A DNA stretch of 64,000 nucleotides from Tubulanus polymorphus (taxonomy: Eukaryota > Animalia > Nemertea): assembly GCF_964204645.1 (NCBI RefSeq), contig NC_134031.1, forward strand, positions 11,906,088 to 11,970,087. The letters run 5' to 3'. The notes under the pieces were generated by a model. It made no database searches. It was not told the DNA's origin and saw nothing but the letters and a program-made list of their open reading frames with translations. This document shows positions 6,024 through 60,440 of this stretch, piece by piece. Made by a program: the position numbers and the translations under genes. Each line of letters begins with the position of its first letter. The first letter of the stretch is position 1.

Positions 6024-6040
6024 TTTTTTTCACTATATAA

Positions 6041-19422: not shown

Positions 19423-19456
19423 TTATTATATAAATTTTTATTAAAGTTAAAATTCT

Positions 19457-20694: not shown

Positions 20695-20719
20695 TTATTT
20701 AACAAAAAAATTAATTATT

Positions 20720-22324: not shown

Positions 22325-22341
22325 TTACATAACAAAAAAAA

Positions 22342-23724: not shown

Positions 23725-23740
23725 TTATATAATTAAAAAA

Positions 23741-24166: not shown

Positions 24167-24186
24167 TTATTTAGCAAAAAAAATTA

Positions 24187-27600: not shown

Positions 27601-27616
27601 TTATATAATGAAAAAA

Positions 27617-28371: not shown

Positions 28372-28388
28372 TTATTTTACATATTTTC

Positions 28389-28742: not shown

Positions 28743-28771
28743 TTATAATATATATTTTTATTAAAATTTGA

Positions 28772-37199: not shown

Positions 37200-38014
37200 A
37201 CTGTCGACATTGGAAAGTTGATTTGTCGAATAAACTTCGTGACATGACGACATTGTTTGTCGACAAGTCGCAATAAGGTCACGACAAGTCGCCATAAATT
37301 TGACGACGCGCCGATATAGAAGACGAAGACACCAGAAATAAGACGACTGAGTTTCAAGTCGTCATAAATATATCGACTTGTCGCGAGGAAAATGGTCGAG
37401 AAAACGGAATATGTCGTCAAAAGGTCACGATATATCGACATATTCATGTCGACTTGACGCGATATATCGACATAAATATGACGACTTGTCGAGTTGGAAC
37501 GCGACATCTCGAGGCCCCTTATCGCTTCCGTAGTATTCGAAAAAAAGCTGTAAAGTGTCATGTTTTCGGTTTGCTTTGCAGAGAGACATTACGTTACTGC
37601 TTCATGGATTTGATGAGGAATGATTTGAACGACTTCGCAAAGGAGTGGAACACTCACACAATCCGGCACCAACGAAATGTTGACAGCCCCCATGGAAATA
37701 TGTCGACATATCGTGACGTTTTCACGACAAATTTCGCTTTTTCGCCCATTTTCCACGGGACAAGCCGTCATTTTAAGACACGTCTAAATGTAAGATGAGG
37801 ACGCCAGTGATATGACGACTGAGTTTCAAGTCGTCATGAATATGTCGACTTGTCGCGAGGAAAATGGTCGTGAAAACAAAATATGTCGTCAAAACGTCAC
37901 GATATGTCGACATATTCATGTCGACTTGACGCGATATATCGCGATATATCGACATAAATATGACGACTTGTCGAGTTGGAACGCGACATCTCGAGGCCCC
38001 TTATCGCTTCCGTA
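37200..38014 (-). mobile_element. Two IS3EU-like ends (terminating at 37532 and 38014) flanking an inverted exon
   Basis: Both end gaggccccttatcgcttccgta. Confidence 0.75.
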
Positions 38015-38480
38015 GAATACCCAGCAAGTTATGATTGTCCTATGCTTTAAATCAATCCAGAAAACTCTCAATTGGAAACATACATGTGTACGGTATCAGC
38101 GGTAGAAAAAATACCACTGTCTGCCATATCTTTGAATAGATTCATCCAGAATTGTCCTAGGGAATGACGTAAAGTACGCCACCATCTTTCAATTCTCTGA
38201 AAAAAATCAGTCAACAAATGAAACTCATTTTGACATCGTATTTTGTAACTTAAACATTTCTACTTTAGTATTCACAATGAAACGGTTGTTAATTTTCACT
38301 GGAATTCCTGTTCACGTTTTAGTTGAATGCCTCACTTGATTATGTGTCGATCTTCCAACGACGACACTCGCTGTCTCATCAACATCTTCAAACCTGAATG
38401 ATTCCTGTATTGCCCGTAGTACGTTGTTTTCAGTACCTGCGTCAATTCTTCTGCACCGAGGAACACCGTTATGTCGTTAT
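37581..38480 (-). pseudogene. Remnant of a second, intron-containing transposase of the same family; its third exon (37581-37697) is inverted
   Basis: Minus exons VPRCRRIDAGTEN...GRSTHNQ | RIERWWRTLR...FKDMADSG with a gt...ag intron; plus-strand LRYCFMDL...EWNTHTIRHQRN. Confidence 0.65.
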
Positions 38481-39332: not shown

Positions 39333-40234
39333 TAAGATAAGATAAGATAAGATAATTTTATTACTCTCCAATAATTTCCATGGTACGTGGAGGAAAAAAT
39401 GATTTTGTTTACAAATATTTACATATCGAGAGAAAAATAAAAAATATTTTAAAAACATAACAAGAGTATTTACAATATATACAAATACAGTGTACTATTA
39501 ACAATTGGCATACTACAGGAGGGATCTATATACATCTAAACCATCTTTTATAAATTGTGCTAATTGAATGGTATTCGGAATGGTATTGCGAAGTTCGGTA
39601 AGAATCTTACAATCAAAGAGAAAATGTAATTCATCCCCAAAAACATTGCAGATTGGGCACATTCTTTCATTTCTAGGTAGATGGAGATTAGAGAATCTAT
39701 GTACAGGTAATATGTGGGATCCTATTCTAAACTGAAAAAAACCAAACACAAAATTATCATCTAGTTGGTTAATATAATTCTCAAACTTAATATCGTTTTT
39801 GTATTCCCTGAAATTAATATATAACGGATTATTATTGATTTTGAAAATGGTCTCTTGTGCATACTGGTCACGTAGTATTTGTCTTACATATTTTGAGAAC
39901 GCCCTAGAACTTTGCATATATTGTTGCATCCATACATAGGACAGGCCGCAGTCATCAAAAGTTTGTTTAATACTGAAAAGCCAAGGACTAGTATATTTGT
40001 CATTTAGATACAGATTACTGGAAATTCGATAGAGTATTGCATTAAGCTTAGATTGTTTGCCAGATACAGTTTTACACCAAAAATAAATCATTCTACGCTT
40101 TACTTCAATGAACAAAGGATAACGCCCTAACTCTGCTAACACCGGTAAATTATGAGAATACTTTGTTACCTTCATTAAAATCTTGCAAAAAAGACAATGA
40201 ATATTTTCTAATAAGTCTAAATTTTCGTATCCCC
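39333..40234 (-). mobile_element. 3' part of a LINE ORF2 with 3' UTR and (TCTTA)n tail; continuation of 58156-59710
   Basis: YENL...LAELGRYP...RMCPICNVFGDELHFLFDC; aagat repeats at ~39334-39355. Confidence 0.85.
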
Positions 40235-40309
40235 AGTAGTTAGGAAATGTCACTTCAGGACCTCAATGAGTGAGGGGGGAGGGGGGAGGAGTGAGGAGGG
40301 GGGAGGGAG

Positions 40310-40740
40310 GAGGGATGACGTCATACCGGAAGTGACGTCATACCGGAAGTGACGTCATCCAAGATGGCGGCCGGAAGTGACGTAATCCAAGATGGTGACC
40401 GGAAGTGACGTCATCCAAGATGGCGGCCGGAAGTGGCGGTTGAAATTCAAATTTCAAATTTTTGGCGGGAAAATTCAAAATTTTTCCGTTAAATCCAAAT
40501 CAAATTATTGACAACAAATCCAAATCAATTTATTGGCGGTGTTAAATCCAAATCAAATTTATTGGCGGTGTTCAATCCAAATTTATTTATTGGTATGATT
40601 GAATCCTAAATGGCGCTTACGCATTCCTATGCGTGTTTATGGGAAAAGTTGAATCCTAGATGGCGCTATTACGAGATCATATGTGTACGTGAAGGTGAGG
40701 GGGAAGTGAAGTTAAATCCTAGATGGCGCTTTTCCCTGAG
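40310..40740. promoter_or_regulatory. Subterminal cluster of ETS-CRE, YY1, E2F and CHR-like motifs (mirrored at ~57660-58085)
   Basis: Repeated CCGGAAGTGACGTCA, CAAGATGGCGGCC, TTTTGGCGGGAAAA, TTGAAA/TTTCAAA and CTAGATGGCGC. Confidence 0.6.
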
Positions 40741-40826
40741 TACGGGCAAATTCGAGACAAAGAAAACCAAAAATTAAAAAAACAATGTAAAACAATTAAA
40801 AAAAACATTTTATTCACCGTTAAAAT

Positions 40827-41336
40827 TTAGTTTAAACACGGTTTAAATCCGAATTCCTTGGCGCACGAGACGTGAATATAAACGTCGCAGCAGTCTGTCT
40901 TTTGTTTAGTTATTTCCAAACATACTAAACACGTGTTGATGCCACAAAATAAAGTTATGCAGTTATAACAAAAATTTTCTTCATACCCTTCACACGTTTT
41001 AAGTTCGCTTAAACAGGGCCAGCATATAGTTTTATCACAACAATGAAGCAAATCCTCTTGCGCGTGACAACGATAACAGTCTTTTTTCGCGATATGTTTG
41101 ATAATCCTAAAATGTGCCATGCAATTCTCGATAGGACATTCGAAATCATGTTGAACGCCTAACCATCGAGCGTTCACTAGCCAGCAATCTTCACAAATCG
41201 GTTTCCTGCAACACGTCGTTACTCGAAAACTACCGTATGTAATTGTCGTATTACAATATTTGCAAATCGCAAATCCGGTAGACCAGTCGATATCTTCAAA
41301 GTCGACATGATTTATTTCATGTTCCGTGGTAGTTGA
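40827..41336 (-). CDS. Cys-rich putative Zn-binding protein (left-arm copy); start uncertain
   Basis: Open frame extends upstream of the called ORF; repeated CxxC...CCxxxxCxxC units (RING/PHD-like spacing). Confidence 0.55.
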   Translation of the reverse strand, partial: STTTEHEINHVDFEDIDWSTGFAICKYCNTTITYGSFRVTTCCRKPICEDCWLVNARWLGVQHDFECPIENCMAHFRIIKHIAKKDCYRCHAQEDLLHCCDKTICWPCLSELKTCEGYEENFCYNCITLFCGINTCLVCLEITKQKTDCCDVYIHVSCAKEFGFKPCLN

Positions 41337-41795
41337 TTTTTTTTTTTTTTTTTTTTAGGAAAATGTTTTCCACGGTAAAAAAATCGCCAGACATTTTCGT
41401 AAGTCACGTCTCGTTTATGCGAGTGTAAACAAAGCGAGTGCGCAGTTAAATCCTAGATGGCGCTAGTCCGTAATCCTATACAGATGCGTGCGCATGCGTG
41501 CGTTTGTGTGTACGTGTGTAAGCGAGTGACGTCATCCTAGATGATGCCATGATTATATAATCTTATGCGAGCGCGTGTATAGAGAGGGGAGCGGGGTTAA
41601 ATCCAATATGGCTTCTTTTGACGGCTATTGTGAAATCATAGACAAGTTTAGGCGAACATATTTCGTAACATGTAAAACCATAAAACGAGTTCGGGTAAGT
41701 CATTTTCTGACAATAAAAACGCGTTGCAAATCCATAATTTAGTCATTCTGCTCAGAGACTTTGAACCGTCAACATCATACAACATCATCGTAATA

Positions 41796-44700
41796 ATGGA
41801 TTCGGCCAGCGGACAAAGTATTTTAGAAATATCTAATACACCAGTTAAAGCAAAGTCATCGCTTCAATCTAGAAAAAGAAAACACCCCTCGCTGAAACTC
41901 GACTTTAGTAAGTTTCTACTTATTTCCCGTATTCGAAACCGTCAAATATTAAGACATACGTATTGATCCACAGCTAGATTTTCGTAGTAACTGAAAAATG
42001 TTTCGTAGTATTTAGAAATGTTCTTAATGTTGTTTCCGTATGCGTGGGGGTTACGTTAAAGCCGTCAGACAAGAACGTACTAGTAGTAAGAATTACGAAA
42101 GTTCTTGTTTGATGCTTTCATCTACCAACGCCAACCATAAATCAGTCTATAAACAACAATTCTTTCTCGGTTCTTCTGCTGTGGGATCTGGCAAACATTC
42201 AGAAAATCTTTATATAAAACTTTTAAATAGTTGGAACCATATTTGGTTGGGTCGGAACAATGGAGTGTATTTATAATGAGGCTCGTGAAGGGATCACGCT
42301 GATACTTGATGATATTCCCGGCTACTTTCCGTAAAAGGAAAAACCGGAAGTTTAGGAAGATGTGGTTGTTTTGCTTATCCTGTATTAAAATAGAATTAGT
42401 TAAATTGTAGATAAAATAATTAGTATAAGTATTTCAAATAATTTAAGAATTGATAATCAATCACAATGTATTCCGAATCGTAGTTAATTATAATAATTAA
42501 AAAAGAAACAATGAATTTGTACTGTAATTAGAAAAGAAAACAAAGTTTTGAAAAGATAATTAATTTGAGCAATCTAGATGTTGTTTAAGAACAAATTGTT
42601 AATAATCGCTAATGTTTTAGAAAAATTAATTTGTGTTAAATGTTAAAACTAGCTGTCTGAAGTTTCTGTTGTCTGTATGCGCTCGTTGGTAATTCACAGA
42701 CAATAGCTGCTCTCTCAACAACGACTAGCAAGGAGTGAGTAAATCACAACGCGTCATGACAGGAGGGTTGGAAGGAAAAAGTTAGTTTAGCAAATCAGTT
42801 TTGAAAATAATTTTAGATCAGCGAATCATTAAGGCCAAATTCTATATGACCAAAACAGTCATGACAGTAAGGTTGCTGCTCCTTGCCAAAAGTCGAGTGG
42901 GAGAGTCGGTATTTTAAGAATGCCGATTCTTTCTATAAAAGGGACCCGCATCTTGAGAGAGCAGTCAATCGGGAGAATCTGTACCTTAGTAAGACGAGTG
43001 TCGACAGCAGGACAGGAGAAGCTTCGGAACGATAGGGATTCATATAATAGGGATTAGGAAAATCATTCTCAGGTTCAAGGTAAATAAAATATATTATCTT
43101 CAATATTATCATCCGGTATTTCAGTTTATTCATTCGGATTTGTGCACGGACACGTTCTCTCGCCAGGGCCTTACTCAAGTATTTTAATAGATAACGATTA
43201 AAGAGAGGATTGTGACTGGTGTATCACTGGTGCCGAAACCATATTGATTAATTATTGTGTCGAGCTTTTATTATTTGTAATTTATTAATTTTAATGGTTC
43301 GAATTTTTATTTGTTCACACTGTGGTGCGAAGAACGCTTTTTCAAAGAAGCGCCGCACTCCAGTAAACAGGCCGACACAGGCATTGTGGGATTCGAACCC
43401 ACCCCGTGCACGACCATTTCAGATCCCGGAGGAGTATCGGGAACCATTGTGGGATTCGAACCCACCGATTAAGCCTTTCGAAATACCGGAAGAGCACCGG
43501 GAGCCTTTGTGGGATTCTAACCCACTGATACCAAAGGCATTAGGTTTGATTGAAGATAATCAGGAGCCTTTGTGGGATTCTAACCCACCGATACCAAAGG
43601 CATTAGGTTTGATTGAAGACAATCAGGAGCCATTGTGGGATACGAACCCACCGCTCACCTCGGTCGCCCCCGCTGAGCCCTTGTGGGAACCAAACCCACG
43701 TGCTACACAGCACGAGGCGCCAGCTCTGGTCACCTTTGGGGATTTGAACCCCTCGGAACGCCGACGCAGAGTACGGCTGGTTAAGGTGCCAGACAAGTTC
43801 GACCCGTTCTGGGTACACTTTTTTCGGGATTTCGCGAACCCGAACGACTTCATTTTTGGGGATAAAGACGCGAATGGTTATTTTCTTTGCCCAGCCTAAA
43901 TAGAGTTGGCTAGAGGGCGTCAATTTTCTTAATATTATCATTCAAGTATTTAATTGTTAATTAATTATTTATTTCTATTTTTAAATTGGTTTAATATTAT
44001 CATTTAAGTATTTAATTATTGATTAATGATTTAATTATTATACAACCAGATTTAATTTATAATTGGTTTGCTATTCTAATATTTCACTATTGTTATATAT
44101 GTCGGTTGGGTTGAAGCGTGATCACTGCGGGGCTACGGTTTATAAAACACATACACTTGCCCCAGCTCCCAAGTCTAGTTGGGAAATACCGGCTCACCTA
44201 AGGGAGCCGCTGTGGGAATCGAACCCAACCAGCACCAAAGGTACCACCACCGTCGGGGCTGTGGGACAGCCAGTGAGGGATTCGAACCCTCCACCCGGTG
44301 GATTAACCGATAGCGATACGTCTTTCTGGGATCAGGGGGATTTTAGTTTGTGCGCTATCCCTGATCACAACATATTGGTAGCCGACAGGTCGCGGGTATA
44401 CGGCTACTTTGAGTGACTTTGAGGGATTCTAGATTGCTTAACACTGATGATCATACATTTTCTTTCTATTAATATTATTATCAATTGTTTATGTCGGGGC
44501 CGATAACGGTAAGGGTTACAACCAAACGCCGTAGCGCTGGTTATTTGGGTGCCCCACCCCGAAAGAGGTGTCTCGTTGCGGTGCGCTTGACACCCGCAGC
44601 TCCGACATCGATAGCTGCAGCACGGTCACCTTCTAGGGACAATAGTGGGACTCCGTATTCCCAGCTAACGGACTTTGAGTTAAAAGACACTTGTTTATAC

Positions 44701-47700
44701 TGCACGTGCCCAACGCTAGCAGTCTTTGACGACCGGATACGGTGCACTTGTCCGCCCTCAGCACCCTCTTTCCCCACTCTGAATTCATCGGGTACGGATT
44801 CGAACCGTGGTAGCCCGATAGGGACTGACCAGCTTATCACGCGGGCTTCATCGGCTGGTTCGACCTGCTCAGGCAGCTCGAGTTTTTCGTGCTGTTGTTC
44901 GGTGCCACCTGATTCACCTACAGGGGATGCCGAACGTCCATTGGACACAGAGCAGCCATTAGACCTGTCCCCATTGTTGGCGGATAGACCATCGTCTGTT
45001 GACACAACTGCAGCTGGGCAATTGTTGGGCGGATCTTGGGGCACATCTGTACCAATTTTCCCACTGGACCTGTCCTTGGGTGTGTCCGCGGTTGACCAGC
45101 CATTAGATCTTTCACCTGGTCAGTCTTTAAGCCCATTTTTAGAGAAGCAGTCTGTCCCCAGCCCTTCCTTTTCGTGGAATTTTGAGGGGATTGACGACAT
45201 TCTTTTGTCGTCGTCAAACGAAGAGTTGACTGTGGCGGACATTGACCGCATTTGGGAACAGCTGCTTTGTTGGGCCGATCATCAGGATCGAGTTTAGTAT
45301 TTAACATAGTAGTATAGAAATACTTACATATAATTAGAAATACTCCGTTTCAACAATATTATGGCTACTAGAAGCGGCACTGCATACGGGCAGGACGGTG
45401 CGGGCGGCTTGCAGGGGCAACCCCCTGCCGAAGGGGTTCCACAGGGTCATCCCCCCGTTAACGATAACACGGTCCTGGAGGCCCTCTCAGGCCTACGCGA
45501 GCAGGTGGACACGGCCACCGCTTTTATGAATTTTTCTATGCTCCCCAAATTCACGGGACGAGATAGTCAGTGCGTCTCTGATTGGTTCAGAGGGTTCGAT
45601 CGTTTGGCCGAGCTTAGGGGCTGGGACGAAATTGCAAAAAAGAAGCAATTATATTGGTTTTTGGCTGGCCCAGCCCTAGTTCTATTCAATGACCTCCGCA
45701 TTGATCAGGGAACCGATGCGGCCGGTGGCAAAGTTGTCACTCCCTGGGAAAATATTGTCCGTGCGTTTTGCGCGCAATTTAGCCCCACCTCGTGGGCTTT
45801 GGTCAAGGAGTCGGCTTTGACGACGATGCGACAGGGGGAGACACAACCGGTCGATAGGTTTGCGGAAGAGATTGATCGTGTGGCCTCGAGTTTGAAATTT
45901 TCGGACCACCAGAAAAAGATGTTACTAATTAACAACTCTCGCCCTGACATATCTGTCTACCTGTTGTCACAGCGTCCGACGACATTTAGGGATGCATGGG
46001 AGGCAGCCAGAATGGCGGAGCATATCGAACAACGTAAAGCTCTGTCGTCTCCCAAGGTATCGCAAATTGGGACCGAACCAAATAAAGCGATGGGTGACGT
46101 TATGGCTGAATTACGGGACATGTTCCGCCAAATTATGGACATCCAGAAGTCTACCCGTACTCAGCGGAATGATAGAGCCACATTTTATAGCGAAAGCCGC
46201 CCGTTACAAAGGTCACAGGATGGCCAGGTGGTGTGCTTTCAATGTCACGCCCCTGGTCATTACGCCAGGAATTGCCCGACGTGGCGTTACGACCAACAAA
46301 GGTCACCAAACCGGGACGCATTTCAGCGTGATAATCGCCGTCCCCAAAATGCTAGTAGGGGTCAGTTTCGGCCACAGAATATTGGGCGTGGCTCCCAAGG
46401 GGCTAATCGAACATTTAGTCAGGGAAACGACCGGAGACCTCATCCTATGGACCGACAAGGGTGGGGTCGCGCAATGAATGGTCAACAGAGCACTCTCCCG
46501 ATTCGGCGATAAGGAGTGATTTTTGGTGGGACGACTCATATTCATATCATAGATATGACGATGACAGTCCTGTAATCGACGATTATATTTTTGATGATGT
46601 TGATGATTATTTTGAGGACGATAGGGATGATATATTCGACATGTCATTTGATCAGGGCAACATGCTAGCTGACTCATTTTCTCTTTATTTTGAACCTGAG
46701 GGGAACTGTAATGTAGTTTACTTAGATGAAAATGAACCTTTACATTTAAATAAGTTTATTGATTATCACACTCCTTCATGGGGTGCCGATGACGTTTATG
46801 ACATTCAAGATCGTAACTTTGGGGACAGCTGGAGGGACAATACCTAGTTGTCGTTTGATGGAAATTTTTATATGGATCGGGGATCCAATTTTGAGGACAG
46901 CTGGATGAATAATTCCCAGTTGTCGGTTACTAGAGAGCCTGTAAAAAGACACAGGAGGGTCACATTTAGCGATCCGGTTGAATTGCAGGAGGTACGTGCT
47001 GATATGGCGTGCTCGGGTGACAATATTAGTATAAATAGGTCACACCCTAGAGGGGTTAATGGTCCGACGGATTCGGCAGAAGATGACCTTTTTAGAGATA
47101 AGAAGTCTCAATTGAATTGTCACGAACGCACTCTTGATCAGTATAAGTACCCAGTAACTTCCGAATCAGCGGTACAATGTGACCTAGTGTCAGTTGATTT
47201 AAGTAATAACAGTTCACGGTCGGAATGTCGTAATGATCATCATGATACGGAGACTGTCGTATCAAATGTATCAAATCAGGTGTCAACATCGAAAAATTGT
47301 TGTCAGTTATTCGAAAAAGAACAGGATCGTCCTGTCACCTCGAATACCAGCGGTTTTCATCAACCAATCGGTAATGAAATGTCCAACGCACAGGACAGAG
47401 GTCAGGTTGTCCCCACGTCTGAACCGATTATGCCAACCAACGACAATGTTGGAATAGGAGATTCGAACTCCGAGTTTCAACCTACTATTCACTGTCAGGA
47501 ACAACTTCCACCTATTACGACGACGTTAGGTAACACGCCAACCAACGACATATGGTCTCTTTCTAGTCAGAATAATCCTATTCAACAAGATGTTTATTCC
47601 CCGTCGATCATGGCAACTGTCGCTTACCGAGTGACAGGTAGCCATTCGGGGACACCGTTAAGTATTTTGATCGACACGGGCGCCGAAATATCTGTATTAT

Positions 47701-50700
47701 CGAACGACTATTTTACGACTCATCCTCAGATATCAAATGGCCCTTTGCAGGTCGGTCAATTCCAATCTGCCCGTGGGGTAGATGGAACTAAATTTGACCT
47801 GAGAGGAGTTATTTCTGTGGATTTTGTGTTAGGCAATTTGGAAATTACGCACTCTATGTACGTGGTAGACGGTATCACGTCCGATGTAATTCTTGGAGCT
47901 GATTTCTTAGAACAAAACCAGGCAGTTATCGATTATGCTAAAAAGGCTCTCTTGTTGCCAGGCGCCGACATAATTTACTTTAGTAATGATGTCATTTTGG
48001 GGAAATCTTCGTCGGTTAAAGTCACGCGTATGACTGTTATTCCCCCTTCATGCGATGTCACCGTAGACCGTAAGTGGCTAATTGACAAGTCTCAGTCATC
48101 GATTGCAGCCTTTGAGCCTGTACATTATTTGAGAATGCGTGATCTCATGAGCGCAAGGTCAGTTGTTAGCGTCATGCCATCAAGGCATAGGCTTCGAGTC
48201 ACGAACCCTACGTCACGATTCGTCACCCTCTTTGAAGATACGTGTCGTAGTGATTCGTGGACAGATGGGTGGTCACTTGACCGATCACTCAAAACAGAGG
48301 CGAAGTCAGGACAGCTTCCTCGGCCACCGGAGGTGTCTATCACACATGTGGAAGACCCTCAGACGTCAGACGAAATTTGTAAGTATAATCGAATTATTTA
48401 GAGTTTGGATCAAGATGCATACGTCCTATTGAAAATTATGAATTGTATACGGTAAGCGTCTCTTCAGTAAGTTATCGAAATATAATTACATAAGTTGTGA
48501 AACTGAAGTATATATAACGCATTGTTGCCAATGAGTTAACTCCTGATCTGGGTTTAATCTAATATAGGAGATAAAGACAACCATAGATAAAAGTGAATAA
48601 TAGCTTGATTGTCGTGATATTGGTTTTTTTTTTGCTGAAATATCACTAGTCTCTAGGGTTTATTATCTGTAGTCTGAATGGATGTCATTGATTGTCAGTT
48701 AGAAAAGAAAGAGTTATGAAATTTTTATATAATCTCTGTGTTTTTATTTGATTGTAAGGTACCCTTATCGGATTTGTGAAGATGAGACCGTCGGGATATG
48801 ACAGCACTACGATGGAAGAATGTCTTCTTCTGTCAACCGCAATAGATGTTGACGGGTACCCCCCTGATAGTGACCATATGGAGATGGGGACTTGTTGGGA
48901 GGTATCCTGAAACTCTTTTCGATGCAACTGATAGTATGAAAAACCAGCAACTGGTATGCTCTGGCCGAGATGGGTGATATTAATTCACCGATTCGTCAAT
49001 TAACGAGGAAAAAGGAACAACTATATACAGCCTACAACAACGATCTAGGGCGTTGCCGTTTCAACGGGATGGAATCATGCTCGATGATTAGTCATGCGAT
49101 TCTGGCCATTGTTAGTGGTGTTTGTCACTCTCGAAGACCTGTTATATACTCACAAACTTAAGTGATGAAGGGTGGACAAAGACACCTGGCCAATGCGATA
49201 CGAAATATGAAGAAAAGTGATAATTTCCGTAGACATTTTAGCGGAGTAAAGCCGAGTGTGTTCAAGATGGCTCCCGTGTAGTTACATTAACATTCGATGG
49301 AATGTTGTTCGCTCAAGCCGTAAGATGCGAATACATTACTGTTCCGTTTCTATATTAACTGTGGAGAAAAGACTCCGATATAGTAACCGTAGTACTATAG
49401 CGTCTATGAATAGCGAGCAAGTATCAGCTGAACATAAATGCGTTTTGCCGTACTATCAACGTAGCAGTACGCGCTCCGAGGAACTGCGGTGGATGACGTC
49501 ATTCGTCCGTCCATGACGTACCTTGTTGTGTCTGGTAGCTGTTGCGTCACTTCGCGGTAAATTCTAAACTCAAACTGTGAACTGTTTTGTGCTTAACTTT
49601 CGACTGTTTAGTGTGCGGGGACAGCGGTCTCGAATGAACTTTTTTCCGATTGGGTATCCAGAACTTTAAATGCGGTTTTATGATAAACTATATCATGAAC
49701 TTTAATATGCGTTGTAGTGTCGAACTCTAAGAAATAGTTACTCGTTATAATGAATTGTTTACTAATGTTCTTTTTCAGGATTTGTTCTAGAGGTATCAGC
49801 GGGATATTCACGAGTTGGTTTAAATTCAAAATTTCGGGACGAAATTTAAACTGGATAGGGAGTGTTGATCCACAGCTAGATTTTCGTAGTAACTGAAAAA
49901 TGTTTCGTAGTATTTAGAAATGTTCTTAATGTTGTTTCCGTATGCGTGGGGGTTACGTTAAAGCCGTCAGACAAGAACGTACTAGTAGTAAGAATTACGA
50001 AAGTTCTTGTTTGATGCTTTCATCTACCAACGCCAACCATAAATCAGTCTATAAACAACAATTCTTTCTCGGTTCTTCTGCTGTGGGATCTGGCAAACAT
50101 TCAGAAAATCTTTATATAAAACTTTTAAATAGTTGGAACCATATTTGGTTGGGTCGGAACAATGGAGTGTATTTATAATGAGGCTCGTGAAGGGATCACG
50201 CTGATACTTGATGATATTCCCGGCTACTTTCCGTAAAAGGAAAAACCGGAAGTTTAGGAAGATGTGGTTGTTTTGCTTATCCTGTATTAAAATAGAATTA
50301 GTTAAATTGTAGATAAAATAATTAGTATAAGTATTTCAAATAATTTAAGAATTGATAATCAATCACAATGTATTCCGAATCATAGTTAATTATAATAATT
50401 AAAAAAGAAACAATGAATTTGTACTGTAATTAGAAAAGAAAACAAAGTTTTGAAAAGATAATTAATTTGAGCAATCTAGATGTTGTTTAAGAACAAATTG
50501 TTAATAATCGCTAATGTTTTAGAAAAATTAATTTGTGTTAAATGTTAAAACTAGCTGTCTGAAGTTTCTGTTGTCTGTATGCGCTCGTTGGTAATTCACA
50601 GACAATAGCTGCTCTCTCAACAACGACTAGCAAGGAGTGAGTAAATCACAACGCGTCATGACAGGAGGGTTGGAAGGAAAAAGTTAGTTTAGCAAATCAG

Positions 50701-51792
50701 TTTTGAAAATAATTTTAGATCAGCGAATCATTAAGGCCAAATTCTCTATGACCAAAACAGTCATGACAGTAAGGTTGCTGCTCCTTGCCAAAAGTCGAGT
50801 GGGAGAGTCGGTATTTTAAGAATGCCGATTCTTTCTATAAAAGGGACCCGCATCTTGAGAGAGCAGTCAATCGGGAGAATCTGTACCTTAGTAAGACGAG
50901 TGTCGACAGCAGGACAGGAGAAGCTTCGGAACGATAGGGATTCATATAATAGGGATTAGGAAAATCATTCTCAGGTTCAAGGTAAATAAAAAATATTATC
51001 TTCAATATTATCATCCGGTATTTCAGTTTATTCATTCGGATTTGTGCACGGACACGTTCTCTCGCCAGGGCCTTACTCAAGTATTTTAATAGATAACGAT
51101 TAAAGAGAGGATTGTGACCGGTGTATCAGTATACTGATATATAATATTTTATTGTTCTTTTAGGTTCGATCGTTAATGACAACGCTGTCGCCGGCCCGTC
51201 GAAAAGTGCGAACTTGCGTAACACCTGGAACAATGACCCCGAACCCCATTATCTGGGATCTCTTGTTTACGCGAGTGCGAAAACGTGGCAGGGGGTAAAA
51301 CGTGTAGATTTACGGTCCTACGAGTGCTGTGAACGAAGAAAACAACTGTATCCCACTAAAAACGGTATTTCGCTCGATCTCCAAGAGTGGGTGCATATAG
51401 ATTTTTGTAAATCCGATATCGAACACGAAATTGCGCGCGTTAAAGAAGATATCGAATACGTGGGTGTAATGACTGTTGGTCGTACGAATTTTATCAAAAT
51501 ATATAGGTCTAGTCACGATCATCGTATTTACGTAGATATCCGAAAATACGATCTATTCGATGAACCTCTCGGTGTTTCCCCGACTAGATGCGGTGTAAAA
51601 CTAACATTGGAACAATGGAAAAAATTGAAAGACATTGATTTTAATGACGATATACCCGAACTAGCCAACATGACGCCCTGTTGGTATGATTCGAGTCACT
51701 CGAATCAGGAATACAGGTGTCCGTACTGCGCAAAAGACACTTCTGGAGTACGAAAAACACCTGAATACGGTGTAATGATCACCCAAGTATAA
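41796..51792 (+). CDS. Spliced tandem PC4 (p15/Sub1)-domain protein, left-arm copy: exons 41796-41907 and 51164-51792; intron holds the LTR element
   Basis: gtaagt donor and ttttag acceptor give an in-frame 246-aa protein; VDLRSY...PTKNGISLDLQEW and VDIRKY...PTRCGVKLTLEQW PC4 signatures. Confidence 0.75.
43228..43240 (+). promoter_or_regulatory. Primer binding site complementary to the tRNA-Phe 3' end
   Basis: TGGTGCCGAAACC one base after the 5' LTR. Confidence 0.8.
43294..43899 (+). CDS. LTR-element accessory ORF A with PLWDSNPP repeats
   Basis: Open frame with N-terminal CSHC and basic patch; ~63-bp repeats keep frame; shorter paralog at 44099-44416. Confidence 0.45.
   Translation: MVRIFICSHCGAKNAFSKKRRTPVNRPTQALWDSNPPRARPFQIPEEYREPLWDSNPPIKPFEIPEEHREPLWDSNPLIPKALGLIEDNQEPLWDSNPPIPKALGLIEDNQEPLWDTNPPLTSVAPAEPLWEPNPRATQHEAPALVTFGDLNPSERRRRVRLVKVPDKFDPFWVHFFRDFANPNDFIFGDKDANGYFLCPA
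44491..45297 (+). CDS. LTR-element accessory ORF with three PLDLS motifs, NLS-like PPRKR, Cys cluster and acidic C-terminus
   Basis: 268-aa ORF directly upstream of gag, bounded by AT-rich spacers. Confidence 0.55.
   Translation: MSGPITVRVTTKRRSAGYLGAPPRKRCLVAVRLTPAAPTSIAAARSPSRDNSGTPYSQLTDFELKDTCLYCTCPTLAVFDDRIRCTCPPSAPSFPTLNSSGTDSNRGSPIGTDQLITRASSAGSTCSGSSSFSCCCSVPPDSPTGDAERPLDTEQPLDLSPLLADRPSSVDTTAAGQLLGGSWGTSVPIFPLDLSLGVSAVDQPLDLSPGQSLSPFLEKQSVPSPSFSWNFEGIDDILLSSSNEELTVADIDRIWEQLLCWADHQDRV
45361..46512 (+). CDS. gag: Gag polyprotein
   Basis: LPKFTG...W, MRQGETQPVDRF, zinc knuckle CFQCHAPGHYARNC. Confidence 0.92.
   Translation: MATRSGTAYGQDGAGGLQGQPPAEGVPQGHPPVNDNTVLEALSGLREQVDTATAFMNFSMLPKFTGRDSQCVSDWFRGFDRLAELRGWDEIAKKKQLYWFLAGPALVLFNDLRIDQGTDAAGGKVVTPWENIVRAFCAQFSPTSWALVKESALTTMRQGETQPVDRFAEEIDRVASSLKFSDHQKKMLLINNSRPDISVYLLSQRPTTFRDAWEAARMAEHIEQRKALSSPKVSQIGTEPNKAMGDVMAELRDMFRQIMDIQKSTRTQRNDRATFYSESRPLQRSQDGQVVCFQCHAPGHYARNCPTWRYDQQRSPNRDAFQRDNRRPQNASRGQFRPQNIGRGSQGANRTFSQGNDRRPHPMDRQGWGRAMNGQQSTLPIRR
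46422..48401 (+). CDS. pro: -1 frame Gag extension ending in an aspartic protease; single TAG at 46845-46847
   Basis: LIDTGAEISV and VILGADFL; slippery GGGAAAC at 46422-46428. Confidence 0.8.
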
Positions 51793-52669
51793 TTTCACAG
51801 ATATTAATTAGATAATATTTATATCATAACCGAACAACAAAATATGTAAAATACATCAATTTATATAATTTAGTTTGCGTTAAACTCTTAGATAGAAATA
51901 AGTATCCGAAATGACTAATCCAGGACTTCATTAAGATCCGCTCTAACCAAAGAGGATTAACTAAAGTAGTGAGTTTCTATCTTTTATGAAATTTATGGTT
52001 TTTTCATGTATAGGTATATGACCTATGTTTATCTACAATATTTATAAAAATATTTATGTTTTTTAGGACTAAATAAAACATTAATTGAATAAAAGATTTC
52101 ATTTTTGACTCATTCTGAGTTACGTTAATCTAGCATTTCGTTGTTATCCAGACCCATGATACCATATACCGACAAAGAAGGCAATTAATTGATTTAGATC
52201 AATACATGACCACGATTGGGGAAAATAGGTGTGAGCAAAACCAATTACCTAGACTAGTAGCAGATGGGTCGATAGTATCCAAACACCATTAATTATATGT
52301 GGAAGACGAAGGCAATTAAGTGATTTAGATCGGAGACACGTCCGAGATGGGAAATTATGTGTGAGGTTTCAAACCAATTACACTAGCAATAATTCGAACA
52401 TTTTTAGTGCTCATAGCGCTGAGGTAATTAAATTGTTTAGAAAAAACCGAACAGATGGTCCTATATGCTGGGTGATATTAGACCCGAGTATCAAAAACAC
52501 CGTTAATTATATGTGATAGAATCCTCAAATACTTTGAGTAAACTGTTAGACTATGAGAATTAATCAACTAATTAGTCGTCTGACTTAGACCCATAAATAA
52601 GGGTGTAGTTTTAGGACAAATCATTTCCAAGATGTCTGTTATTGGAGCACTAAAATAGTAGCCGAAATG

Positions 52670-53050
52670 TTACGTTCGAACTTTATCAAGATATATGGAT
52701 CTAGTCACGATCACCGTATTACGTAGATATCCGAAAATACGATCTACACGATGAGCTTTTCGACGTAAATCCGACTAGATGCGGCGTAAAACTAACATTG
52801 GAACAATGGAAAAAAATTGAAAGACATTAATTTTACAGAAGATATATCCGAACTGGCTAATATGAGACCGTGCTGGTACAATTCGAGTCACTCGAATCAG
52901 GAATACAGATGCCCGTACTGCGCAAAAGACACAAGCGGGGTTAGAAAGCACCTGAATACGGTATAATGATAACCAAAGTATAATTAAAGTAATTTAAAAC
53001 CGCTCTGACCAAAAGAGGATTAACTAAAGTAGTGAGTTTCTATCTTTTAC
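52670..53050 (+). pseudogene. Degenerate duplicate of the PC4 gene 3' half (mirrored at ~54520-54900)
   Basis: Aligns by eye to 51480-51990 with frameshifts. Confidence 0.8.
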
Positions 53051-55776
53051 GAATTTTTATACGTAGCGACTCATTCGTCATCTACCGGATTGTATAAATA
53101 AAAGCCATAACCCGTGTATATGTATAATATTTTTGGAAAAAAAAATTTTATGTTTTTTAGATGAACGAGTAAATAATAAACTTGCAATGTATATAATATT
53201 TCATATCTGTCTCATTTTATTCGGATTTACTCTATAATAATCAAGCATTTTGTCGTTGGCCAGACCTCTTGATACAAAATATCATCTATGAACGTAATTA
53301 AGTAATTGAGAAACAAATACCATTGACCCATGGTTAGCACCTACCATCTAAAATATCTGGTCAGTACCCTCGATGATATGTGACGGAATATGCAGGATGA
53401 AAATTACGCAATTAAGTAATTGAGAAACAAAAACCATTGACTCGTTGTTAGCATCTGCCGAATAAGTTATTTAGATCAGAGACACAACCGCGATTGGGGA
53501 AATTAAGTATGAGCAAACCAACTATAGTATACCCATTTCGGGTTTGTTGGTTGTTTGTTGATTGACTGACGCGATTAAGCTGTTTGGAAAACCTAGACTA
53601 GTAACAGATGGTTTTCTACGGCGAGTTTATAGAAATATAATTTAGAAAATGACAAAATTCATATACATAATAGTTTATTATAGAAGCTTAAAATATTTCA
53701 CGATAAATTTTTCTTTTACAAAATAATCATTATCATTAGTTTTATTTGACAATAGTTTCGTAATATCGCGTAAATCGTTACCGTGACATAGGTGCAATAG
53801 TACAAATATTGCGTAATAACAGAAATACATCGGATAATACGTTTTGATACATCTTATTATTATATTTCCAATCTATACAATTCTGTATTTCTGTTATTAC
53901 GCAATATTTGTACTATTGCACCTATAAATTATATTTCTATAAACTCGCCGTAGAAAACCATCTGTTACTAGTCTAGGTTTTCCAAACAGCTTAATCGCGT
54001 CAGTCAATCAACAAACAACCAACAAACCCGAAATGGGTATACTATAGTTGGTTTGCTCATACTTAATTTCCCCAATCGCGGTTGTGTCTCTGATCTAAAT
54101 AACTTATTCGGCAGATGCTAACAACGAGTCAATGGTTTTTGTTTCTCAATTACTTAATTGCGTAATTTTCATCCTGCATATTCCGTCACATATCATCGAG
54201 GGTACTGACCAGATATTTTAGATGGTAGATGCTAACCATGGGTCAATGGTATTTGTTTCTCAATTACTTAATTACGTTCATAGATGATATTTTGTATCAA
54301 GAGGTCTGGCCAACGACAAAATGCTTGATTATTATAGAGTAAATCCGAATAAAATGAGACAGATATGAAATATTATATACATTGCAAGTTTATTATTTAC
54401 TCGTTCATCTAAAAAACATAAATTTTTTTTTTCCAAAAATATTATACATATACACGGGTTATGGCTTTTATTTATACAATCCGGTAGATGACGAATGAGT
54501 CGCTACGTATAAAAATTCGTAAAAGATAGAAACTCACTACTTTAGTTAATCCTCTTTTGGTCAGAGCGGTTTTAAATTACTTTAATTATACTTTGGTTAT
54601 CATTATACCGTATTCAGGTGCTTTCTAACCCCGCTTGTGTCTTTTGCGCAGTACGGGCATCTGTATTCCTGATTCGAGTGACTCGAATTGTACCAGCACG
54701 GTCTCATATTAGCCAGTTCGGATATATCTTCTGTAAAATTAATGTCTTTCAATTTTTTTCCATTGTTCCAATGTTAGTTTTACGCCGCATCTAGTCGGAT
54801 TTACGTCGAAAAACCCATCGTGTAGATCGTATTTTCGGATATCTACGTAATACGGTGATCGTGACTAGATCCATATATCTTGATAAAGTTCGAACGTAAC
54901 ATTTCGGCTACTATTTTAGTGCTCCAATAACAGACATCTTGGAAATGATTTGTCCTAAAACTACACCCTTATTTATGGGTCTAAGTCAGACGACTAATTA
55001 GTTGATTAATTCTCATAGTCTAACAGTTTACTCAAAGTATTTGAGGATTCTATCACATATAATTAACGGTGTTTTTGATACTCGGGTCTAATATCACCCA
55101 GCATATAGGACCATCTGTTCGGTTTTTTCTAAACAATTTAATTACCTCAGCGCTATGAGCACTAAAAATGTTCGAATTATTGCTAGTGTAATTGGTTTGA
55201 AACCTCACACATAATTTCCCATCTCGGACGTGTCTCCGATCTAAATCACTTAATTGCCTTCGTCTTCCACATATAATTAATGGTGTTTGGATACTATCGA
55301 CCCATCTGCTACTAGTCTAGGTAATTGGTTTTGCTCACACCTATTTTCCCCAATCGTGGTCATGTATTGATCTAAATCAATTAATTGCCTTCTTTGTCGG
55401 TATATGGTATCATGGGTCTGGATAGCAACGAAATGCTAGATTAACGTAACTCAGAATGAGTCAAAAATGAAATCTTTTATTCAATTAATGTTTTATTTAG
55501 TCCTAAAAAACATAAATATTTTTATAAATATTGTAGATAAACATAGGTCATATACCTATACATGAAAAAACCATAAATTTCATAAAAGATAGAAACTCAC
55601 TACTTTAGTTAATCCTCTTTGGTTAGAGCGGATCTTAATGAAGTCCTGGATTAGTCATTTCGGATACTTATTTCTATCTAAGAGTTTAACGCAAACTAAA
55701 TTATATAAATTGATGTATTTTACATATTTTGTTGTTCGGTTATGATATAAATATTATCTAATTAATATCTGTGAAA

Positions 55777-56604
55777 TTATACTTGGGTGATCATTACACC
55801 GTATTCAGGTGTTTTTCGTACTCCAGAAGTGTCTTTTGCGCAGTACGGACACCTGTATTCCTGATTCGAGTGACTCGAATCATACCAACAGGGCGTCATG
55901 TTGGCTAGTTCGGGTATATCGTCATTAAAATCAATGTCTTTCAATTTTTTCCATTGTTCCAATGTTAGTTTTACACCGCATCTAGTCGGGGAAACACCGA
56001 GAGGTTCATCGAATAGATCGTATTTTCGGATATCTACGTAAATACGATGATCGTGACTAGACCTATATATTTTGATAAAATTCGTACGACCAACAGTCAT
56101 TACACCCACGTATTCGATATCTTCTTTAACGCGCGCAATTTCGTGTTCGATATCGGATTTACAAAAATCTATATGCACCCACTCTTGGAGATCGAGCGAA
56201 ATACCGTTTTTAGTGGGATACAGTTGTTTTCTTCGTTCACAGCACTCGTAGGACCGTAAATCTACACGTTTTACCCCCTGCCACGTTTTCGCACTCGCGT
56301 AAACAAGAGATCCCAGATAATGGGGTTCGGGGTCATTGTTCCAGGTGTTACGCAAGTTCGCACTTTTCGACGGGCCGGCGACAGCGTTGTCATTAACGAT
56401 CGAACCTAAAAGAACAATAAAATATTATATATCAGTATACGTATGTCTTAATATTTGACGGTTTCGAATACGGGAAATAAGTAGAAACTTACTAAAGTCG
56501 AGTTTCAGCGAGGGGTGTTTTCTTTTTCTAGATTGAAGCGATGACTTTGCTTTAACTGGTGTATTAGATATTTCTAAAATACTTTGTCCGCTGGCCGAAT
56601 CCAT
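55777..56604 (-). CDS. Spliced tandem PC4-domain protein, uninterrupted right-arm copy: exons 56604-56493 and 56405-55777, 87-bp intron
   Basis: Canonical GT-AG phase-1 intron; 246 aa; RKRK NLS-like motif in exon 1; C-terminal C...H...CPYC. Confidence 0.8.
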
Positions 56605-57060
56605 TATTACGATGATGTTGTATGATGTTGACGGTTCAAAGTCTCTGAGCAGAATGACTAAATTATGGATTTGCAACGCGTTTTTATTGTCAGAAAATGA
56701 CTTACCCGAACTCGTTTTATGGTTTTACATGTTACGAAATATGTTCGCCTAAACTTGTCTATGATTTCACAATAGCCGTCAAAAGAAGCCATCTTGGATT
56801 TAACCCCGCTCCCCTCTCTATACACGCGCTCGCATAAGATTATATAATCATGGCATCATCTAGGATGACGTCACTCGCTTACACACGTACACACAAACGC
56901 ACGCATGCGCACGCATCTGTATAGGATTACGGACTAGCGCCATCTAGGATTTAACTGCGCACTCGCTTTGTTTACACTCGCATAAACGAGACGTGACTTA
57001 CGAAAATGTCTGGCGATTTTTTTACCGTGGAAAACATTTTCCTAAAGAAAAAAAAAAAAA

Positions 57061-57570
57061 TCAACTACCACGGAACATGAAATAAATCATGTCGACTTTG
57101 AAGATATCGACTGGTCTACCGGATTTGCGATTTGCAAATATTGTAATACGACAATTACATACGGTAGTTTTCGAGTAACGACGTGTTGCAGGAAACCGAT
57201 TTGTGAAGATTGCTGGCTAGTGAACGCTCGATGGTTAGGCGTTCAACATGATTTCGAATGTACTATCGAGAATTGCATGGCACATTTTAGGATTATCAAA
57301 CATATCGCGAAAAAAGACTGTTATCGTTGTCACGCGCAAGAGGATTTGCTTCATTGTTGTGATAAAACTATATGCTGGCCCTGTTTAAGCGAACTTAAAA
57401 CGTGTGAAGGGTATGAAGAAAATTTTTGTTATAACTGCATAACTTTATTTTGTGGCATCAACACGTGTTTAGTATGTTTGGAAATAACTAAACAAAAGAC
57501 AGACTGCTGCGACGTTTATATTCACGTCTCGTGCGCCAAGGAATTCGGATTTAAACCGTGTTTAAACTAA
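57061..57570 (+). CDS. Cys-rich putative Zn-binding protein (right-arm copy)
   Basis: Mirror of 40827-41336; one amino acid difference visible (P/T). Confidence 0.55.
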   Translation, partial: STTTEHEINHVDFEDIDWSTGFAICKYCNTTITYGSFRVTTCCRKPICEDCWLVNARWLGVQHDFECTIENCMAHFRIIKHIAKKDCYRCHAQEDLLHCCDKTICWPCLSELKTCEGYEENFCYNCITLFCGINTCLVCLEITKQKTDCCDVYIHVSCAKEFGFKPCLN

Positions 57571-58155
57571 ATTTTAACGGTGAATAAAATGTTTTTTTTA
57601 ATTGTTTTACATTGTTTTTTTAATTTTTGGTTTTCTTTGTCTCGAATTTGCCCGTACTCAGGGAAAAGCGCCATCTAGGATTTAACTTCACTTCCCCCTC
57701 ACCTTCACGTACACATATGATCTCGTAATAGCGCCATCTAGGATTCAACTTTTCCCATAAACACGCATAGGAATGCGTAAGCGCCATCTAGGATTCAATC
57801 ATACCAATAAATAAATTTGGATTGAACACCGCCAATAAATTTGATTTGGATTTAACACCGCCAATAAATTGATTTGGATTTGTTGTCAATAATTTGATTT
57901 GGATTTAACGGAAAAATTTTGAATTTTCCCGCCAAAAATTTGAAATTTGAATTTCAACCGCCACTTCCGGCCACCATCTTGGATGACGTCACTTCCGGTC
58001 ACCATCTTGGATTACGTCACTTCCGGCCGCCATCTTGGATGACTTCACTTCCGGTATGACGTCACTTCCGGTATGACGTCATCCCTCCTCCCTCCCCCCT
58101 CCTCACTCCTCCCCCCTCCCCCCTTGAGGTCCTGAAGTGACATTTCCTAACTACT

Positions 58156-59710
58156 ATCCCCATACCTCGCAACCATACATGGCAACAGGGGCAACGCACA
58201 TATTATCGAATAATTTAAACATTACGTCGATTGGGAGTTTCAGGCGCCTACCCTTTTGAATAATTGAAAACATAGCTTTCATAGCTTTATCGTAAAGATA
58301 TTTTTTTGCTTTAACAAAACTACCGTTCCAGTTAAATTTAACTCCGAGGTACAAATAATCTTCAACTATCTCCAATTCTTGGTTGCCAAACATAAATTTC
58401 GGAATTTGCTTAATTCTAGATTTACTTCGCGCAAAATAACTAATATTTTTGTTTTATCGACATTTACAGTGAGGCCGTTGCCTGTGCAATATTCAAATAA
58501 TGTATCTAAGTATAACTGTAGTGATCTCTCATCCTCGGCAAGAATGACCGTGTCATCCGCATATAGGATAATAAATAAATTCAGTAAAGCATCAAGATCC
58601 TGATTACACCCCGAGTTCAGATGTTCCATAAACGATAAAGTTGAGTTACCACGGTTAATAAAAAATTCCTCAATATCATTCAAAAATAAAGAAAAAAGAA
58701 TAGGTGACAGGTTTTCGCCTTGTCTTAAACCACGATCAGCTGCGAAATAATGCGATGTAGGTATTACTCTTAGACCTAACACATGATTTGACGGAGTCAT
58801 ACATACTTTTTACTACATTCAAAAAATTACCCGTTATACAATTAGCTATGAGTTTCTTCCATAAAGTAACCCTACAAACCGAATCAAAAGCTTTCTTGAA
58901 GTCGACAAAGGCGCAGAAAAGGCTTCTTCCTTGACAAAGATACAACTCGACGATGGTTTTTAGAGTGTAAATATGATCGATAGTTGAGTATTTAGATCTA
59001 AAACCAGCCTGAGCTTCACTAATAATGTTGTTAATATCTAGGAATGAAGACAGTCTTTGATTTAATATACTTGTAAATAATTTGCCTAAACAGCTTACTA
59101 GTGATGCCTCTATAATTATCTGGGTTGGCGGGGTCTCCTTTGTTTTTAAAAATGGGTTTAATGACGCCATCAGACCACATCTCTGGTACATGGCCAGTTT
59201 TAAGTACTAAGTTGAAAATATTTTGTAATATGCTTGCTATACATGGATACTCATTAACTTTCAGCATTTCATTGATAATTCCATCTATACCAGATGCCTT
59301 GTTGTTTTTCAATGAAGATATAGCTTTGCCTATTTCTTCAGTAGAAATTTCACAGTTTAACATGGAGTTGTCATAATCAGGTGGGTCATCATCTTGAGTT
59401 TCAGTAATGGTATCAGTCTGCTCGTTTACGTTAATATTGAAATCATTCAGTCTCATGAAGTGTTCAAGGAAAGTATCGATATCGATATTATCTTTGTCAA
59501 CTTTTGTTACTGTCGCTGAGTTTAATATTAGCATAGACCAGTATTTCTTAGGGTTACTAATTTCACATTCTCTTAATTCTTTGATAAAGTTTTCGTTCTG
59601 TCTTCTTTTAGATTCTCGAATAATTTTTTTATATTTCCTAGACGAGTTCTTTAAAAATTCTAAGTTTGCGGAATTCGGACAGCTCCTATATCTATTTCGC
59701 CTAGGCCTAT
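58156..59710 (-). pseudogene. LINE ORF2 reverse transcriptase, frameshifted and 5'-truncated, split by the palindromic element
   Basis: NPDNYRGI, QAGFRSKYSTIDH, FVDFKKAFDSV, GLRQGENLSP, LYADD, ending MYGCEVWG at the TSD. Confidence 0.92.
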
Positions 59711-60440
59711 AATTATACTCTTTCTGCGCTATTCTACAATCCTGACCCGTTTATTCACTACAGTACTGCCATCTGTACAAAGTATACAAAACTAAGCTAC
59801 ACAATTCAGTTATTGTAACAGGCAGCACCGTCTTGCCCCCGTTCTCCGCTACAAGATGATTACTTGATTTATTCTTAAAGTGTCGTAACCGCAAAAAAAG
59901 CATGCGCGGGTTACTGATTAAAGCGGCCTCGACGACTGGATTTCTCGAAGAAACAGCGACAAAATCCTCACAGTTGACTGCTCACCATCCGGGACAACAA
60001 CCTGAATATTAAATAACAAACAAGCATGAACCATATGATCATGAAGTTTATTACATCAACCTGATTCTCACAATGACCAGGCAAAACTGATCTGGTCAGC
60101 TCATATCAGGTGTTCCTCAGAGGGCAGCACAATACAACCATGAAGCAAGTTGAGCTAATAGCTGCAATGAAAATACTGGCTACCACATCCTCCCCCCAGT
60201 TTAAAAATATTCTGGTCCCCAGAATAAAACTTCCGAACAGAACGAGGACAAAACACAAATTTTCGATTTTTTTTTTTTCAAAGGGAATCAAAACACAAAA
60301 ACAGATCGAACCCAGGGACACGCCCGAATTTCACGATTCCCTTCATGACTGTAAAACATATAAAAACAACAACATGATCATTCATTAAGTGCATATTTAT
60401 TCAATTCAAAAACAGCTCCATTAAAACCGATTTAGATTTC

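Follow-up and report, generated by a model that had tools for sequence, protein, structure and literature searches.

How does an insertion with the ends of a Polinton come to be almost all inverted repeat? The question is raised by an element at 40235–58155 of the 64-kb stretch of Tubulanus polymorphus DNA analysed here (the window, in which all coordinates are given), for which a prediction made from the letters alone had proposed that one Polinton end was copied back on itself during replication or, alternatively, that a stable satellite family was at hand. Our verdict is that the element is a mirror-doubled Polinton end that is real, young and private. For its origin we favour, at a probability of about 0.45, a fold-back of one Polinton-family end in a free replicating copy, followed by integration in trans.

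The element opens with AGTAGT at 40235 and closes with ACTACT at 58155, as the original prediction had it, and these (AGT)2//(ACT)2 ends are accompanied by the 6-bp target-site duplication (TSD) ATCCCC, which has the size known for Polintons. Maverick ends read (AGT)2//(ACT)2 or (AG)3//(CT)3, and the former together with a 6-bp TSD are the commonest Maverick signature (PMC8097293). The flanks are the two halves of a single frame of a long interspersed nuclear element (LINE) on the minus strand, since the open reading frame (ORF) 58154–58453 ends in YGCEVWG and the ORF 39513–40262 contains WGYENL; RVT_1 domain matches fall within 58366–59206. The predicted splitting of a LINE codon run by a perfect ATCCCC duplication is confirmed, the flanks being in-frame halves.

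39513–40234, minus strand: LINE target ORF, 3′ part (ORF list)
40229–40234, no strand: left TSD copy, ATCCCC (read from the sequence)
58156–58161, no strand: right TSD copy, ATCCCC (read from the sequence)
58156–59750, minus strand: LINE target, 5′ part, frameshifted, with RVT_1 matches (ORF list, domain scan)

Self-comparison resolved the insertion into three blocks, namely two inverted arm pieces and one direct repeat formed by a pair of long terminal repeats (LTRs). The giant element first proposed is indeed a real insertion, but its true size is 8752 bp, the rest of the 17.9 kb being a later LTR insertion of 9.17 kb.

40235–41963, plus strand: left arm, outer part, beginning with AGTAGT, mirrored at 56437–58155 (self-alignment)
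41964–51128, plus strand: passenger LTR retroelement, 9.17 kb (LTR pair, TSD, absence from the right arm)
51129–53644, plus strand: left arm, inner part, mirrored at 53925–56440 (self-alignment)
53925–58155, minus strand: right arm, unbroken, ending with ACTACT (self-alignment)

The reverse-complement arms of about 4.2 kb, in which about ten differences had been counted by eye, differ by 6 substitutions and 2 indels between 40235–41963 and 56437–58155 and by 5 substitutions between 51129–53644 and 53925–56440, in total by 2 indels and, over the 4235 bases aligned, 11 substitutions (0.26%). The right arm keeps the empty site of the LTR insertion, and the two LTRs of the passenger (41964–43226 and 49866–51128) differ by 4 substitutions in 1263 bp (0.32%), which is indistinguishable from the divergence of the arms (Fisher p = 0.76). 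Either the LTR insertion thus followed the doubling closely, or homogenisation has acted on the arms.

The arms are separated by a 280-bp spacer, as predicted, but the centre of symmetry is a 54-nt loop inside it, enclosed by a perfect 42-bp inverted repeat (53788–53829 / 53884–53925). The second copy of this repeat touches the right 4.2-kb arm, so that the structure is a single fold around a 54-nt loop, from whose right side 143 bp are absent.

53645–53787, plus strand: 143 bp of the left side without counterpart on the right, within a block common to the whole family in reads (reads)
53788–53829, plus strand: first 42-bp hairpin arm, family sequence (self-alignment, reads)
53830–53883, plus strand: 54-nt loop, true centre of symmetry; family reads exit after 53882 (reads)
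53884–53925, minus strand: second 42-bp arm, fold-back remnant, with zero depth at 53888–53923 (reads, four of four runs)

Both breakpoints of the centre are only 54 nt apart in arm coordinates, as expected because a fold-back by nature gives a near-symmetric centre. When the central hairpin was folded as DNA, its z of −10.8 was reached by none of 200 shuffles. One-sided central deletions make palindromes stable. Long inverted repeats are unstable when the spacer is short, and 6-kb repeats with a 280-bp spacer are stable in wild-type yeast (PMC7999016).

The family to which the arms belong was followed in four runs that contain the stretch and in one added raw-read DNA run of the same species label. 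Run X5 provides raw reads (1934 Mb, 12% of the run) from a sample and study other than those of runs X1, X2 and X3, which consist of contigs and cannot show absence, as contigs drop rare variants. With a genome size of 313–358 Mb (table in PMC8468679), the single-copy depth in X5 would be 5.4–6.2, assuming that the organism of that table is this species. Depth per bin is 62–159 in the right arm and 16 in the lowest bin of the flank, and copies per haploid genome come to about 10–29 for the arm and about 18–26 for the spacer block, diverged subfamilies counted in. A close subfamily has a depth of about 50 at 57856, 56837, 54127–54302 and in the spacer.

At the centre, the X5 depth of 108–141 across 53654–53869 drops to 0 across 53888–53923 (zero in four of four runs): this part of the fold-back arm is covered by none of 381 X5 reads and by no X1–X3 contig. 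In contrast to this, 89 X5 reads (agreement 0.89) together with X1, X2 and X3 contigs exit at 53882 into one other sequence, and 25 joint X5 reads tie the arm to the left spacer junction. The family thus continues past the fold point, and the present centre is private or rare. About 3 X5 reads would be expected on the second 42-bp arm if one allele carried it and about 6 if two did, so that the chance of zero reads is 0.04–0.07 and 0.002–0.004, respectively. Because the fold-back arm is without reads while the run-on form has 89, this centre is not that of a replicating satellite family, and the stable-satellite alternative finds no support for it; the element is a private or rare copy and not the founder of an amplified family. 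The 138-bp hairpin was also tried as a MITE (a miniature transposable element with inverted repeats) and rejected, since its second arm has no reads, whereas its loop and first arm belong to the family sequence, and it lacks a flanking TSD.

The reads also bear on whether both halves come from one end. Among the variant sites listed (40 of 722), 29 lie in the right arm, and at 10 of these at least 79% of X5 reads differ from the window. The minority letter is common to both arms at 7 of these 10 sites (at 56080, 158 of 163 reads differ), and the left arm agrees with the reads at the other 3. Arms with the same rare variants descend from one molecule or were homogenised; indeed, the 54-nt loop and the 7 of 10 shared variants are what copying of both halves from one end predicts, and homogenisation would look alike. 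The claim that one end was copied back therefore gains from the 54-nt centre, the shared rare variants and the run-on reads, a support that covers the copying and not its setting in replication. Reads at least 99% alike make up 98 of 381 at the centre and 1951 of 13337 on 53600–64000 (flanking repeats included), the arms being 99.7% alike to each other. In addition, a 5778-bp X1 contig, 87% alike, extends 5.5 kb beyond the fold point, and this contig together with diverged PC4 proteins of single accession (see below) fits an ordinary, unmirrored parent. Some family variants lack 54397–55744 (1348 bp, about one internal PC4 duplication unit; 27 X5 reads and one X3 contig), and further upstream sequences join the spacer block in some family members.

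What the doubled end encodes was predicted to include no polymerase, integrase, capsid or ATPase. None of these core genes was matched, but the arms are not empty, each having a PC4 gene and a Cys-rich ORF, the only frames of at least 100 amino acids in the arms (none above 215). Queries from two metagenome loci (L001 and L008, introduced below) for adenain, integrase, ATPase and two presumed capsid proteins gave no tblastn match in 40235–58155 at E ≤ 1, and no pPolB appears in the ORF list of the element, for which no separate protein query was made.

40268–40593, plus strand: subterminal tandem arrays of 7/17/28/29-bp units, with TGACGTCA, CCGGAAGT and CAAGATGG (mirror 57804–58124)
40827–41354, minus strand: Cys-rich ORF, outward (ORF list; mirror 57046–57570, plus strand)
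41796–51792, plus strand: tandem-PC4 gene, left copy, exons 41796–41907 and 51164–51792, inward; its intron houses the LTR element
55777–56604, minus strand: tandem-PC4 gene, right copy, exon 1 56493–56604, exon 2 55777–56405; product matches P0005

The PC4 gene is spliced, encodes two PC4 domains (Pfam PC4, E 3.9e-14) and is present once per arm; the inner part of the left arm also holds a broken partial second PC4 copy at 52673–52985. Its exon 2 frame matches RefSeq proteins of Tubulanus polymorphus, and the spliced product matches P0005, which RefSeq places at two loci, while P0001, one residue different, is found at one; five diverged PC4 proteins (88% and about 68% alike) have a single accession each. 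The protein model (mean pLDDT 79) shows two PC4-type repeats and matches PC4 (TM 0.85–0.91 on target) and PURA repeats I–II, so that the product is likely a single-chain binder of single-stranded DNA and may take part in strand-displacement replication.

The Cys-rich ORF contains 24 Cys in 169 amino acids and one LxCxE motif; where its open frame starts, at a homopolymer run, no start codon is present. Judged on its sequence, it would fit the loose motif definition of an Oncoid-like protein given in PMC8502044; no Pfam family was matched, and no homolog was found among 2 near-length and 10 longer candidates. An identity as a RING protein is not claimed, the Atlas leads being an unnamed one (0.90) and a viral RING-type one (0.88), with a recognition of 2260, below the 2300 mark. 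Within the subterminal arrays, 40316–40440 and its mirror hold 4 TGACGTCA, 5 CCGGAAGT and 3 CAAGATGG in 226 bp, compared with 2, 3 and 8, respectively, elsewhere in the window, the element itself excepted. These words, which we take to be ATF-, ETS- and YY1-like, may serve as part of an origin or promoter.

Are these genes those of a Polinton? A PC4 profile search among 1.84 billion proteins gave 1320 at E ≤ 0.001. A metagenome scan with an alignment (A4) of 8 distant PC4 relatives, from which the window's own protein was excluded, yielded 23 loci, 18 of which match P0005 at 25–38% identity. A Polinton-type core gene neighbours PC4 in 9 of the 23, including 8 of the 18 (L001 and L008 supplied the queries for this comparison, and many loci, at 1–2 kb, are too short for neighbours). 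Pfam recognised adenain in L001, L009, L011 and L015, rve with chromo in L001 and the A32 ATPase in L001 and L008, on 27 ORFs picked by eye and with most adenain and A32 scores near or below the curated cut-offs; the presumed capsid ORFs of the PC4 loci had no Pfam match. The PC4 gene of L001 is oriented towards adenain, integrase and ATPase, much as PC4 is oriented inward here. Tandem PC4 is accompanied by TBP-like, BIR (IAP) and CARD-RING genes, the order of which varies, in L001, L004, L008, L009, L011, L013 and L015, and this set is a cassette at invertebrate Polinton-like ends, for the accessory side of which the tandem-PC4 gene is a useful marker. Viral contigs scanned with the PC4 alignments gave 49 and 6 pattern matches, none of which was confirmed, and the literature searched contained nothing on a Polinton with PC4 beyond a C. 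elegans study. The Polinton origin put forward in the original prediction is thus supported by the end motif, the 6-bp TSD and the PC4 relatives beside core genes, and the PC4 relatives indirectly suggest that the interior derives from a Polinton and that the parent is one.

We favour the fold-back in a free copy because of the near-symmetric centre, the intact ends and the clean TSD. Priming at the accessory-gene end would have begun a synthesis that halted about 4.5 kb in, whereupon the nascent strand would have reversed with a 54-nt loop and served as its own template up to the terminus, so that the resulting molecule carried one and the same origin and integration end twice. The 143 bp beside the centre would have been skipped, or deleted later; the integrase of a helper would have inserted the molecule as a unit in the LINE, with a 6-bp TSD; and the LTR element would then have entered the left PC4 intron, the arms drifting to 0.26%. 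A more specific proposal, that Polinton replication yields snap-back defective genomes which a helper integrates, and that the present element is the newborn single fold-back of an ordinary parent with 10–25 copies, strikes us as rather unlikely.

Several observations weigh against a fold-back in a free copy. The fold-back junction has no read support in four runs, so its reality rests on internal evidence, and the parent was never seen as a whole element. The junctions show a microhomology of 0–1 bp (1 bp at the 143-bp gap), and the loop junction lacks a clean priming stem. A single 21.6-Mb contig carries P0001 and one P0005 accession, whose gene numbers differ by 26, and this near-identical PC4 pair could be a second mirrored copy. 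Of the 13 events that distinguish the arms, 3 fall within the initial 200 bp (post hoc, p = 0.02), and such weak terminal clustering is expected if the right terminus is the parent's own other end. Finally, depth shows no step from 300 bp to 4.5 kb from the end, which means that the parent has terminal inverted repeats (TIRs) of less than 300 bp or arms of more than 4.5 kb, both fitting equally; the last bin, which is repeat-rich, brings a rise in summed contig depth in X1–X3 and no rise in X5.

The last point, in the form of a depth without TIR boundary, also favours the best of the rival explanations, in which the whole family is mirror-doubled with arms of more than 4.5 kb and this copy was shortened at its centre by two deletions or by a new fold-back. 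It agrees with the two near-identical PC4 genes on one contig, with the finding that no junction of the arm to other sequence at 53925 occurs among the loose ends listed, and with the butterfly polintons, whose gene-bearing TIRs are about 2 kb (10.1101/2025.02.07.637071). However, the five diverged PC4 proteins have single accessions, the 87% contig running 5.5 kb past the fold would need arms of at least 10 kb (this contig may include host flank), and TIRs of less than 300 bp are ordinary, given 402 ± 276 bp in vertebrate Mavericks (PMC8097293). Moreover, independent deletions are not expected to land 54 nt from symmetry. A long-armed relative had been named beforehand as what would reduce the element to an ordinary internal deletion; this is now excluded for arms ending where the arms of this copy end, while arms above 4.5 kb still fit, and we regard such a family as possible though somewhat unlikely.

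A second rival keeps the Polinton ordinary until after its integration, when fold-back priming, or else conversion using the left end, would have repaired a break, so that the interior and the right part were replaced by the inverted left 4.4 kb while the right terminus and TSD were kept. Galileo elements offer a model of such TIR extension, since their TIRs recruit internal sequence (TIR1-F1-F1-TIR2), mostly in non-autonomous copies (PMC3573991). The private centre agrees with it, as does the weak concentration of arm differences within 200 bp of the terminus, and so do the 3 arm differences to which the reads give a direction, all of them changes of the right arm and two of them 2 bp apart. 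Against it, Galileo TIRs reach about 1.26 kb at most, whereas 4.4 kb would have been copied here and the interior wholly lost; the terminal differences sit in tandem arrays and at a CpG, which mutate fast; and 8 arm substitutions have no direction among the variant sites listed. On balance we hold an origin within the chromosome to be unlikely. The joining of two different family copies head to head was also considered and is disfavoured by the shared rare variants and the single TSD.

An assembly or chimeric-read artefact at the centre, to which the uncovered fold-back arm in four runs might point, is very improbable, because a fold-back chimera copies one strand exactly while 11 substitutions and 2 indels separate these arms, the 143-bp gap is one-sided, the 9.17-kb LTR element has its own TSD, and the outer flanks, which bear a perfect TSD, are distinct halves of one LINE and in frame. 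Moreover, X5 is listed as another sample, in which about 3–6 reads would be expected if it carried the allele, and contigs drop rare variants.

Compared with known systems, the element shares with Polintons/Mavericks (adintoviruses; PMC8097293, PMC8502044, 10.1101/2023.08.22.554363) the ends, the 6-bp TSD and accessory genes near one end (here tandem PC4 and an LxCxE/CxxC ORF), and differs in that core genes were not found and that the middle measures 54 nt (280 bp with the one-sided gap). Its inverted repeat of 4.2–4.4 kb contrasts with 46–1447 bp in vertebrate Polintons or 100–1500 bp in Polintons. Autonomous Polintons have TIRs of about 50–1500 bp and a body of 13–25 kb, against a body of 8.75 kb here; judged by core genes and TIR size, the element is not an autonomous Polinton, and, with its Polinton ends and TSD and no core gene detected, its best place is among the non-autonomous Polinton derivatives. 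Butterfly polintons likewise have duplicated genes in enlarged inverted repeats, and polB-less polintons with LINE or LTR cargo (10.1101/2025.02.07.637071) resemble the element in its LTR passenger and lack of polB; however, butterfly polintons keep a long unique interior and core genes whereas the present element is almost all repeat, and, unlike their cargo, the LTR element here entered one arm after the doubling. Galileo/Foldback 2-TIR copies (PMC3573991) are also non-autonomous and nearly all inverted repeat with recruited internal sequence, but belong to the cut-and-paste P superfamily, with TIRs to about 1.26 kb, many copies and no viral replication stage; the same paper cites Jurka et al. 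2007 for Polinton repeat expansion.

The snapback genomes (SBGs) of adeno-associated virus (AAV; PMC8235507) show the same mirrored genome end, a symmetric or asymmetric loop and the helper dependence presumed here, and the promoters of AAV 5′-SBG dimers face inward, as here. AAV differs in being a parvovirus with hairpin priming whose SBGs are seen in virions, compared with a presumably protein-primed element seen as one germline-integrated copy. By analogy, the element would work like an AAV snapback genome made of a Polinton end. No description of a palindromic or snap-back Polinton was found in the literature searched, with subscription papers, Repbase and supplements outside this scope.

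The passenger LTR element, with its TSD GTAT at 41960–41963 and 51129–51132 and sites resembling a primer-binding site and a polypurine tract, holds a gag/zinc-knuckle ORF (45334–46512) and a protease ORF (46848–48401), and no reverse transcriptase or integrase match was obtained among its scanned ORFs. It is presumably Gypsy-like and, though young, looks non-autonomous. Upstream of gag, 43252–45297 carries long Pro/Ser-rich ORFs and a 63-bp tandem repeat.

Elsewhere in the window, remnants of a second, very AT-rich (21–25% GC) Polinton-like family lie at 1785–7655, 16154–24609, 27247–32839 and 61646–64000, with a Pox_A32 ATPase at 17717–18145 and an integrase/chromo piece at 17174–17539; X5 depth reaches 263–893 at 61581–64000. 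Three AT-rich stretches we take to be pPolB-like and the ORF 19597–20694 capsid-like; for the former, Pfam yields only a weak Endonuclease_7 match. These remnants were rejected as the parent because their DNA does not resemble that of the arm (26 bp at a best E of 0.02). Directly upstream of a pPolB-like gene, 33034–33443 is a 410-bp imperfect palindrome (75%), and 32854–33248 is a 96% inverted copy of 13042–13428; these may represent the TIRs of an AT-rich element of 20 kb, one end of which would bear a second, older fold-back, and neither AG..CT ends nor a TSD was seen. Other elements include a 400-amino-acid ORF at 35499–36701 with helix-turn-helix and rva_4 integrase domains (E 6.9e-35), like a DNA-transposon transposase; an internally palindromic MITE-like repeat family, 72–93% alike, at 9690–10276, 12045–12819 and 37298–38022; and an rve_3 integrase ORF of another LTR-type element (60441–61565), interrupted at 61561 by an AT-rich Polinton-like element.

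How Polintons replicate has been deduced from their gene content and scarcely ever observed, and cleanly integrated rearranged copies are fossils of the replicating molecule. If the element formed in the chromosome, or by deletion in a long-armed family, it would be an unusual but explicable transposon rearrangement. If the palindrome predates integration, two copies of one end suffice for insertion, defective copy-back genomes exist in the Polinton virus group, and the two junctions record polymerase jumps at base resolution; since the centre is private and the parent family abundant in public reads, one genome offers both the parent and its product for comparison. Should the snap-back be newborn, it would give direct evidence of a strand-displacement replicating form so far uncaught in animals, and its two inward-facing PC4 genes could be a source of hairpin RNA against its own family. 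Altogether, a fold-back of one end in a free copy, if this reading is true, would mean that a defective viral genome has been caught in the germline.

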